DNA of 64,000 nucleotides, taken from contig OZ024740.1 of the NCBI GenBank assembly GCA_964016885.1, positions 378,138,001 through 378,202,000 on the forward strand, read 5' to 3'. Shown piece after piece: positions 30,201 through 33,200 of this stretch. Under the pieces are notes generated by a model, which was not told the DNA's origin, searched no databases, and saw only the letters and a program-made list of their open reading frames with translations. Made by a program: the position numbers and the translations under genes. Each line of letters begins with the position of its first letter. Position 1 is the stretch's first letter. This stretch comes from Eledone cirrhosa (lineage: Eukaryota).

Positions 30201-33200
30201 TTGACACATATTTCTAGCTTAGCAATTGGTTCATCCATTTTTCATGAAATTATTTCATTCTTTTTTTTCTTTCTTTCTTAAAATTACAATTAATGACAAT
30301 GTTGTCTATGCATTTAATTTTTAATGTTTACTGCTGGTTTCATATTAATAAATATACCTATTTCTGAAACTTGTACATCTTCCATATAGAGCAATAGAAC
30401 AGTAAATAATCAATTAATTAATCATGTTATCCATGTAAATGTTTTCATTCTTAATCAGAAGAATAAGAGAGGAAGATAAGAAAGAGAAACAAGATGATTT
30501 CCATATGTTTTTCTTCCTTTCATGAAAAATGGATGAACCAAAAACTATGTTTATATAGAGAAATATTTTTAAAACTTCTTTTTCAAAGACAGTACTATAA
30601 GTCAGTTGATAATTCAGTTGATAATTCAAGATGATACTCATTCAGAGCCATACCTGTGAAAAATTAACATTTTTGAAGTTGCCAGTAGCCCTAACTTTAA
30701 AAATGGTTGTATGCAGTACAGAAAATAGTTTAATTCAGTAATTGTAGTGCAATCTGGCAACAATCAAACATGTAGATGACATATACAAAATGAACTGAAT
30801 TGGTCATAATTGATTTTTTATCACCATCAATTCAGACATATAGTTATATACATATGTAAATATTGTCTTTAAAATAATAGGACAAACGTTTTTTAAAAAG
30901 AGCACTGGAGAATAAAATGAATTAAACAAGAGTGTTGTAGTTTTCTCGAACATTGTGTAAAATGTAGAAAATAGTGTTTTGTTTGAAGGGTATTTTTAAA
31001 AGTTAAAAATATAACAAAGATGTTGGGATGTTACCTTGTACTGCTTTATAGGTCTTAATATTTCGGGATAAAATCCCTTCAAGAGTGACAAAAAAAAAAA
31101 ATATATATATATATATATATATATATGTATACGTACATACATATATGTATACAGACGTACAGTAGTATGTATATATATATGTACGTATGGATTCACCAAA
31201 TATTTATTATAATGCTCAGTGTGTTTGTAAACAAACATCCCGTATTAAGCCGTAGTATCTAGCAACGACCGTTGCTCGTTTGTTCAACACTGACAAAGGA
31301 ACGCTGTACTAGTTTCAAGCTTGTTAGCTATCGTCAGCAACGTATACCTTCCTGCCAGATAGTTGAACGTCCGAAAGTATATACTTTCCTTATGCATATT
31401 AACGGCTGAGTAGCCCAATTTGCATATAGAGTGGGTTAATCGGCCGGGTGCACCGAAAACGATAAACGGAAAAAATGAAACGAAATTTCATTTCCCACTC
31501 TTAGTACGGCTGTTACTTAAATATAAGTATGTATACGTACATACATATATGTATAGACGTACAGTAGTATGTATATATATTTACATACATGCACACACAT
31601 ATATATATGTACGTATGGATTCACCAAACATTTATTATAATGCTCGGTGTGTTTGTAATACATATATGTATGTACGTATACATACTTATATTTAAGTAAC
31701 AGCCGTACTAAGAGTGGGAAATGAAATTTCGTTTCATTTTTTCCGTTTATCGTTTTCGGTGCACCCGGCCGATTAACCCACTCTATATGCAAATTGGGCT
31801 ACTCAGCCGTTAATATGCATAAGGAAAGTATATACTTTCGGACGTTCAACTATCTGGCAGGAAGGTATACGTTGCTGACGATAGCTAACAAGCTTGAAAC
31901 TAGTACAGCGTTCCTTTGTCAGTGTTGAACAAACGAGCAACGGTGGTTGCTAGCCACTACGGCTTAATACGGGATGTTTGTTTACAAACACACCGAGCAT
32001 TATAATAAATGTTTGGTGAATCCATACGTACATATATATATGTGTGCATGTATGTATATATATATATATATACATACTACTGTATGTCTGTATACATATA
32101 TGTATGTATGTATACATACTTATATTTAAGTAACAGCCGTACTAAGAGTGGGAAATTAAATTTTGTTTCATTTTTCCGTATATATATATACAGCTCCAAA
32201 CTAGTTTCTTCCATTAATCTTTTGATTTACCATCCAATTCACATTTTCTATTAATATTAATATATTTTTTCTTACATATTTTGCATCTAGATAAATATTA
32301 TTAATATATAAAATTATAAAATCAATTTTTGTTAATTGAAAATACACATTTGTTATTAGAAAAACAATTTTCCACATAAAGAATACATTTATCTTCACCT
32401 ACACCATATAAATACATACATGTTCACTATCTCTTTTCCTTTTCTTTCTTCATTAATATTTGTATATAAATAGGAATAATGGAGAAATCCAGTTTGCTAT
32501 TTAACTCTAAATGAAAATAGTTTAGTTCAGCTAGCTTATAGATAAGATATTTTTTGTTTTCAATTTTGGATAGTTTTCTTTCTTAGATTAACTTTGTGTT
32601 CTATTTACTAATATTCTCTTTATTCTTGCAGACTAGTTGTAAAAGAGCCATTGAAACCACTGATTTGACTCTCAGTTTTGGTTGGGATAGCAGTGAAGGT
32701 ATTACTTAAAACATATAACAAGTATTTTTCATGAAAAAAACAAAGCAATGCATATTCTAATGTTCAATTTCTAATCTTTATAATTTAACCCTTTTGATAC
32801 CAAACTGCCTGAAACTGCTCCAGTTTCTATGATACAATTCTGATTATTTTGAAATGTTTATATTTATCTAAAAACCTTCCATCTTAATTTTATGTAAAAA
32901 TCTCTAAGTTATATTCCAAACTCCAGCTTAATGAGAAAGTTATTTTACTAAATCCCTCCAAATTCTTGATAATTTTTAAAATTATTTGACAATCATAGGC
33001 AGTGTGTTTCATTAGAAATATGGCAATGGAAGGGTTAACTTAAATTAGTAGCAAATGTTAAGTTTGTTTTATTAAATCAAAATGAAAAATTAAAATTATT
33101 TCTGATGCTGATGTTATTGATAAGTTATTTTGATTTTTAGATATAGTATTTTGTCACTCGTATCTAAATATTTTATTTTATACATAGGAAATTTTTCTTT

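Follow-up and report, generated by a model that had tools for sequence, protein, structure and literature searches.

We analysed a 64,000-nt stretch of the Eledone cirrhosa genome (3.0 Gb; assembly GCA_964016885.1, contig OZ024740.1, positions 378,138,001 to 378,202,000 of the forward strand; hereafter the window), in which a two-armed repeat insertion occupies positions 31125 to 32179, within an intron of a gene for a USP47-like ubiquitin hydrolase. Coding motifs flank the intron upstream (28534-28854) and downstream (32632-32699 and 33231-33368), and an exon peptide of the host gene matches Pfam UCH, and USP47 at E 1.3e-13. The insertion is composed of two inverted copies of a unit of 434 nt, numbered such that u1 is window position 31658 on the plus strand, and both of its outer ends run into TA repeats. 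The features of the locus, including the sites A and B at which the outer ends of copies fall, are as follows.

28855..32631, plus strand: host intron of the USP47-like gene, holding the insertion; limits placed by translation
31101..31124, unstranded: (TA)n target repeat left of the element, from the sequence and a tandem repeat scan
31125..31658, minus strand: left arm, from u325 through one lap to about u27, 534 nt; its outer end is of type A and stops a few bases before the usual u34
31307..31337, minus strand: left-arm core of the type I hammerhead, with its minus-strand cut predicted after 31307
31658..31658, unstranded: 5'-to-5' inversion junction, one base common to both arms
31658..32179, plus strand: right arm, from u1 round a full lap of 434 nt and on to about u89, 522 nt; outer end of type B
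31686..31750, plus strand: sites A (u29-34) and B (u89-93) as they occur inside the arm; both are putative start sites of reverse transcription, from end tallies, fold and contig ends
31844..31931, plus strand: long predicted hairpin extending hammerhead helix I, from the fold
31875..31905, plus strand: type I hammerhead core of the right arm, predicted cut after 31905
32024..32091, plus strand: TA/CA-like spacer, whose varying length gives rise to the lap differences of 404-434 nt
32120..32179, plus strand: one-sided A-to-B tail, confined to the right outer end
32179..32190, unstranded: 12-nt TA run right of the element, from the sequence; compatible with a target-site duplication (TSD), which is indistinguishable within (TA)n

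Anatomy of the insertion and its repeat family

The two arms begin at different points of the unit, u325 on the left and u1 on the right, and meet at 31658. An earlier, sequence-only reading of this stretch had described two copies joined 5' to 5', each longer than one lap of a unit of about 430 nt, and the coordinates and periods bear out this description. The right arm has a period of 434 nt and an overhang of 88 nt, exactly as claimed, and the claim of 404 nt plus about 130 nt for the left arm holds when the arm is measured from its outer end (overhang 130 nt); measured from the inner end, its period is 428 nt. The left-arm period of 404 nt arises because 26 nt were lost from one TA-like spacer, which is 14 nt long against a mode of 38 nt and is the sole spacer of 14 nt among the 175 measured.

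The inverted arms are 99% complementary over 384 nt (31171-31554 and 31658-32041) and differ by 5 substitutions in 327 compared sites. The differences quoted in the sequence-only reading are thus real, and they are private to single laps. The window copy belongs to subfamily 1 of the repeat family and lies about 2% from the subfamily majority. Eight of its nine distinct departures from the family majority are confined to a single lap, and the ninth, G127T, is the only one found in both arms; it is present in 3 of 60 subfamily-1 insertions. We considered the arm differences as a sign of two templates and rejected this idea on the distribution of these nine departures. Separately, we observed that the inner ~290 nt of the arms are identical (31658-31944 versus 31554-31268), all five differences being confined to the outer ~75 nt of the unique block. 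This identity is unexplained; conversion, polishing to the family majority or chance could each produce it.

The unit belongs to a large and young family. The 31-nt hammerhead core pattern has 12,756 exact matches in the genome and the reversed control has none. At least two young subfamilies, distinguished by an 8-nt indel, diverge from their respective majorities by 2.05% (subfamily 1) and 3.22% (subfamily 2), with lap lengths of 412-454 nt. The unit is non-coding, having no open reading frame (ORF) of 200 aa. Copies span the range from fragments to tandem arrays of ~12.6 kb and ~110 kb. Units within one array have about 2 derived alleles in common, versus 0.18 between arrays, and exact lap duplicates are present; the arrays therefore grew by local duplication. 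The alternative that the long arrays are rolling-circle products, suggested by equal divergence between adjacent and distant units, was rejected on this evidence.

Several further observations concern the family as a whole. The satellite arrays (109.957-110.068 Mb on C28, loci L079 and L080; 3.290-3.303 Mb on C11, loci L074 and L075) retain an inverted 5' arm and higher-order duplications, and a short inverted arm starts the array at three of the array ends examined (L074, L079 and L082). As a side observation, both arrays look like satellite DNA grown from a single retro-insertion. At L133 and L154, new copies have inserted in the TA run that ends older copies, giving tail-to-tail clusters. 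Contigs of runs X4 and X6 (organisms B and C; run kinds unrecorded) have at least 90% identity across the unit, those of X6 with site B running into TA, and judged by these sequences the family may be present in related species.

The unit carries a predicted type I hammerhead, supported by the motif, by conservation of the core and by two-sided changes in its pairs. The core elements CUGANGA, GAAA and UH are present in type I order with helices I, II and III; helix I has 6 bp, helix II a U.U followed by 4 bp, and helix III 2 bp with a palindromic loop. Pair probabilities are 0.45-0.94 in helix I and 0.90-1.0 in helix II, the unit folds with z = -8.3 against 100 shuffles, and the core is 97-100% conserved among dispersed copies. 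An older subfamily has changed T-G to A-T in helix I with pairing kept. A second hammerhead family (L232, L148 and L149) differs in 18 of 43 letters and has identical geometry, with the U.U, the 4-bp helix II, the same loop II and a palindromic loop III; base pairs of both helix I and helix II, as well as the palindrome of loop III, have changed with pairing kept. The independent events of this kind are few.

Three points count against the hammerhead reading. The G10.1-C11.1 pair typical of the base of hammerhead helix II (PMC4209133) is replaced by U.U in 37 of 42 variants; the same U.U has been described for the axolotl hammerhead HHR_Amex2 (PMC7229834). Helix III is unpopulated in the fold of the monomer, and a weak helix III in the monomer is expected of hammerheads working as dimers (PMC4209133). 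Finally, Rfam recorded no hammerhead at the gathering score in the window and none among 52 matches at E up to 10, and its sub-threshold microRNA matches fall on the TA spacer. In the host pre-mRNA, the plus-strand core would pair fully with the antisense arm, and cutting of the host transcript is therefore unlikely.

Elsewhere in the window there is a second opposed pair of type I hammerhead cores, at 61965 (minus strand) and 62121 (plus strand); helix II of this pair is long and AU-rich, resembling that in the ends of Penelope-like elements (PLEs). The window also contains a 3-kb AT-rich tandem array with a period of 14-20 nt (59998-62985) and a 450-nt (AT)n run (57132-57581).

Outer ends and the mode of insertion

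We scored the ends of arms in two samples, parsing the arms by k-mer chains. Sample 1 comprised 92 best-match loci and is biased to long copies; sample 2 comprised 60 loci taken by position on contig C1 among the exact core matches; both samples require or favour the hammerhead. Most outer 3' ends are at one of two fixed sites, A (u~34) or B (u~93), which are separated by 59 nt. In sample 1, 136 of 156 arm ends lie at A or B, and 117 of these 136 adjoin TA. Site A is predicted to lie within a small hairpin and site B just 3' of a larger one. Single-armed copies end at the same two sites (42 of 44).

Two-armed insertions use one site of each kind. Sample 1 contained 56 pairs in 92 loci, 17 of them with an unclassified end, and 36 of its 39 scorable two-armed insertions are A+B (p 1.8e-8). 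Sample 2 contained 40 pairs in 60 loci, of which 18 were unscorable, with one segmental duplicate, and all 22 scorable pairs are A+B (p 2.4e-7); pairs were unscorable when one end lay at neither A nor B or when they had diverged too far for anchors. Together, 58 of 61 scorable pairs follow the rule. It is weakened by three A+A pairs in sample 1, of which two end in non-TA flank and look truncated and one is a multi-inversion, and by the breadth of class A, which includes ends whose last unique anchor lies at u414-u24, just before site A (7 of 36, the window locus among them).

The inner 5' ends, by contrast with the outer ends, spread over the unit. The sequence-only reading had called the copies circularly permuted. 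This description fits the inner 5' ends and fails for the outer 3' ends, which are fixed throughout the family, and the randomly permuted start points that it envisaged among genomic copies did not emerge, the variable ends being ordinary 5' truncations and the priming ends being fixed. We also looked for a pile-up of 5' ends at the predicted cut. Ends within 5 nt of it numbered 7 of 112 in sample 1 (3.9 expected) and 0 of 88 in sample 2 (3.0 expected), and we rejected a pile-up on the counts of both samples.

The geometry of the pairs bears on a model in which reverse transcription yields one arm, and the other comes from snap-back or self-priming with either the first cDNA or an antisense template being copied; this type of model was proposed for head-to-head Penelope junctions (PMC3846280). 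The head-to-head junction, the rare alleles common to both arms and the overlaps of 1-5 nt at some two-armed junctions all suit it. However, a copy made by snap-back has to be contained in the first arm. Among the 58 A+B pairs there are 33 whose A arm extends beyond the upstream limit of the B arm by over 40 nt, and the B arm alone carries the A-to-B tail; the window locus has the same geometry. With neither arm inside the other, neither was copied from the other, which excludes snap-back for these pairs. In addition, there is no palindrome at the window junction, where the arms start at u325 and u1. A countable rule of one A and one B end, with arms often non-nested, thus argues against snap-back, which is possible for the 22 pairs with a longer B arm and improbable as the general explanation.

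A DNA foldback or MITE-like (miniature inverted-repeat transposable element) transposon, or a DNA-level inversion within a tandem satellite, would account for long inverted arms, fixed outer ends, some TSDs and the expansion of arrays by local DNA duplication. TSDs of 10-13 nt were detected in 3 of 29 pairs, compared with 4 of 404 swapped controls, the remaining flanks being mostly pure TA. The sequence-only reading had named fixed termini, or terminal inverted repeats (TIRs) with TSDs, as the mark of a foldback transposon. The outer ends are indeed fixed and TSDs occur where flanks allow, but ends A and B are different sequences 59 nt apart and are not TIRs; the combination of fixed outer ends and TSDs marks a Penelope-type insertion instead. 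A foldback origin also sits badly with the free truncation of the inner ends, the use of the same A and B ends by single-armed copies, the covariation of the hammerhead helices and the same geometry in an element that encodes reverse transcriptase. We consider it very unlikely.

The latter element is an intact PLE in the same genome with an 804-aa ORF comprising reverse transcriptase and, at the C terminus, a GIY-YIG domain (L081:134-2548, minus strand; also L116). It is very young, with all 150 scored matches 99-100% identical over a 200-aa query, and the reverse transcriptase query returned 28,707 first-look candidates. The element has a 3.9-kb unit, forms more-than-unit tandems and carries its own type I hammerhead upstream of the ORF. 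It ends at two sites 88 nt apart, giving an 88-nt tail, and 6 of the 7 scorable among 11 hand-picked two-armed loci are A+B, the exception having identical flanks on both sides. Pfam gave no significant match for the ORF. On the clade description in PMC8557442, we provisionally call the element Nematis-like.

We regard this autonomous element as a candidate source of enzyme for the unit. Its site A and that of the unit have an 8-mer in common, evidence that is weak given that each has to anneal to TA. No further homology between the two was found: when the unit was compared by BLAST with 45 loci of the autonomous element, the matches were confined to TA repeats and to independent copies lying nearby. 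Nor was any ORF-bearing parent flank common among 115 flanks of the unit.

That the inverted structure is an assembly or read artefact, of the palindromic long-read chimera type, is barely credible. No contig among the four runs examined, which are of unrecorded kind, spans the whole stretch, and at one autonomous locus, L124, the palindrome continues into the flanks, which are identical; both facts would be in keeping with a chimera. However, the window arms carry 5 differences in 327 sites, start at unequal phases of the unit and border on distinct flanking sequence, and the 96 comparable pairs in 152 loci obey one rule, in agreement with the view of the sequence-only reading that the insertion is not a read artefact. 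Site B also ends into TA (u93) in contigs of three independent runs, contigs being material that cannot show ends, strand or expression.

Penelope insertions leave an inverted 5'-truncated copy and a one-sided tail (PMC8557442, PMC3846280), they use (TA)n targets (PMC8557442), and duplications of 8-10 bp have been described at PLE insertions in Adineta (PMC3846280). In vitro, both strands are cut and extended from two internal starts of reverse transcription that bracket the tail (PMC11167929). The footprint of the unit matches this published footprint, and two-ended, Penelope-type target-primed reverse transcription is therefore its very likely origin. With slightly less assurance, we propose that Penelope-like enzymes acting in trans probably inserted the unit in a staggered cut in (TA)n, by the following steps. 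In AT-rich DNA, a GIY-YIG nuclease would cut the two strands at points about 10-13 nt from each other. The 3' DNA ends would then prime reverse transcription at internal positions of the RNA, probably of a single molecule, with site A (u~34) serving one end and site B (u~93) the other. Both cDNAs would pass 5'-ward through the hammerhead cut site and stop at variable points, and their joining by short microhomology would leave a 5'-to-5' junction and a 59-nt tail on one side. Later, individual laps would have acquired private mutations and changed by slippage in the spacer.

The RNA template

Both window arms cross the predicted cut site, as do 113 of 136 arms in the biased sample 1, and the template was therefore continuous there. 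The sequence-only reading had taken permuted, more-than-unit copies as evidence for a circular RNA. The start points do not support this, and an uncut multimer explains the length equally well: tandem arrays exist, and the 3.9-kb autonomous element forms more-than-unit tandems too. We judge a ligated circle slightly likelier than an uncut multimer, and on its own an evenly poised proposition. Reverse transcription round a circular RNA is already a published hypothesis (Discussions of PMC4209133 and PMC7229834). A specific version, in which a dimer of Penelope reverse transcriptase would load one 430-nt circle at two fixed sites 59 nt apart, one per strand, and run round it from both ends of the break, we put forward tentatively, at a little under an even chance.

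Within an insertion 17-26% of rare alleles are held in common, compared with 1.1-1.5% between insertions, which supports one template per insertion. Alleles present in all laps are rich in A>G changes (9 of 32, versus 48 of 477 private alleles; p 0.005), and A>G on the sense strand is the mark expected from adenosine-to-inosine editing. Strand bias across all rare changes was a further candidate signal that we rejected (subfamily 1, 44 A>G versus 38 T>C, p 0.58; subfamily 2, 49 versus 28, p 0.02).

A considerable body of evidence pulls the other way. In sample 2 alone the A>G excess is not significant (3 of 15 versus 15 of 168, p 0.17), and some all-lap events are lineage-linked (L027/L030 and L047/L159). 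Among 42 insertions with at least three laps, only 5 carry a rare allele in every lap, which bears on the circle step in particular. Thirty alleles sit in a subset of laps and have an ordinary spectrum (3 of 30 are A>G); such subset sharing fits inter-arm conversion, local duplication or a heterogeneous multimer. At the young locus L191, with about 2 + 7 laps and only 7 variable sites, one allele is present in 6 of the 7 right-arm laps and in neither of the 2 left-arm laps. The long arrays, grown by local duplication with exact lap duplicates, give no proof of rolling circles. For an anole PLE in vitro, hammerhead cleavage was unneeded and unprocessed RNA was the dominant substrate (PMC11167929), and of nine predicted Xenopus retrozyme dimers, eight were without cleavage (10.64898/2026.07.22.740005).

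These observations give weight to the same two-ended insertion from an uncut linear multimer, transcribed from tandem copies, in which the hammerhead would be a passenger or serve another step. We consider this a serious possibility that falls somewhat short of an even chance. Multi-lap copies and arrays up to ~110 kb exist, the more-than-unit tandems of the autonomous element and the preference for unprocessed RNA in vitro (PMC11167929) agree with it, and, judged by eye, several subset alleles correspond to each arm's outermost full lap (L137, L156, L165 and L176). However, such matched-lap sharing is also expected from later inter-arm conversion, and the alleles found in every lap of both arms (L027, L137, L159, L176 and L244) are A>G-rich. 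Copies from different insertions have almost no rare alleles in common, so the multimeric sources would have to be uniform. In coral, mussel and axolotl, similar repeats with hammerheads have been shown to form circles (PMC7229834). If the version with a reverse transcriptase dimer on one circle were correct, thousands of copies in the genome would be fossil traces of two-ended, rolling-circle target-primed reverse transcription, each lap repeating the scars of RNA editing.

Comparison with retrozymes and Penelope-like elements

The element is a young, abundant hammerhead retroelement with the testable features of a non-LTR (non-long terminal repeat) retrozyme, which supports the proposal of the sequence-only reading that it is a hammerhead-bearing retroelement of the retrozyme type. 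As in the metazoan non-LTR retrozymes (PMC7229834; 10.64898/2026.07.22.740005), its non-coding unit measures a few hundred bases and contains a type I hammerhead, and it occurs as monomers, oligomers and long tandem arrays, has a short helix III with a palindromic loop and lives beside PLEs. Its U.U at the base of helix II resembles that of HHR_Amex2 (PMC7229834). For the published retrozymes, circles and cleavage were shown, whereas the unit described here is known from genomic sequence. Two-armed copies with A and B ends are common in Eledone; the word 'inverted' has no occurrence in PMC7229834, and the accessible part of the retrozyme preprint (10.64898/2026.07.22.740005) holds no analysis of insertion ends. 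An origin of animal retrozymes from PLEs was proposed in the same preprint, in which 24 of 57 Xenopus families have homology to the pseudo-LTRs (pLTRs) of known PLEs; for our unit we found no parent, in a pLTR comparison that covered one PLE family.

By its truncation, inverted copy, two 3' ends, TA targets and duplications, the unit works like a non-autonomous PLE. It has in common with endonuclease-bearing PLEs (PMC8557442, PMC3846280, PMC11167929, PMC4209133) the 5' truncation, the partial tandems and the inverted 5'-truncated copy, as well as the one-ended tail, the AT-rich or (TA)n targets, the two internal starts of reverse transcription and a hammerhead near the ends. Unlike them, it has no ORF, and its tail is 59 nt long rather than 30-40 nt. 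The A+B pairing is near-strict in the unit, whereas the PLE papers describe the tail as optional or often one-sided. Chlamys elements such as MRC1 (PMC8557442) are likewise non-autonomous PLE derivatives with pLTRs and head-to-tail insertions of multiple copies, and paired hammerheads on opposite strands 100-700 bp apart have been described in Schistosoma (PMC4209133). Searches of the literature, which had incomplete coverage, turned up neither a count of A+B pairing or non-nesting in any retrozyme nor an earlier account of this family.

Each ingredient of this architecture is already in print. In the published work, as far as its accessible text goes, the entry of retrozymes into DNA and the inverted, one-tailed insertion of Penelope are both proposed rather than shown, and the family described here ties retrozyme integration and Penelope insertion together by its insertion footprint. 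The A+B rule predicts coordinated use of two start sites of reverse transcription, unlike the one in vitro PLE study (PMC11167929), in which start sites did not differ between strands and such coordination was not seen. Because a putative small, young and abundant RNA and a young, intact candidate enzyme occur together in one genome, the choice between circle and multimer is directly testable in Eledone.

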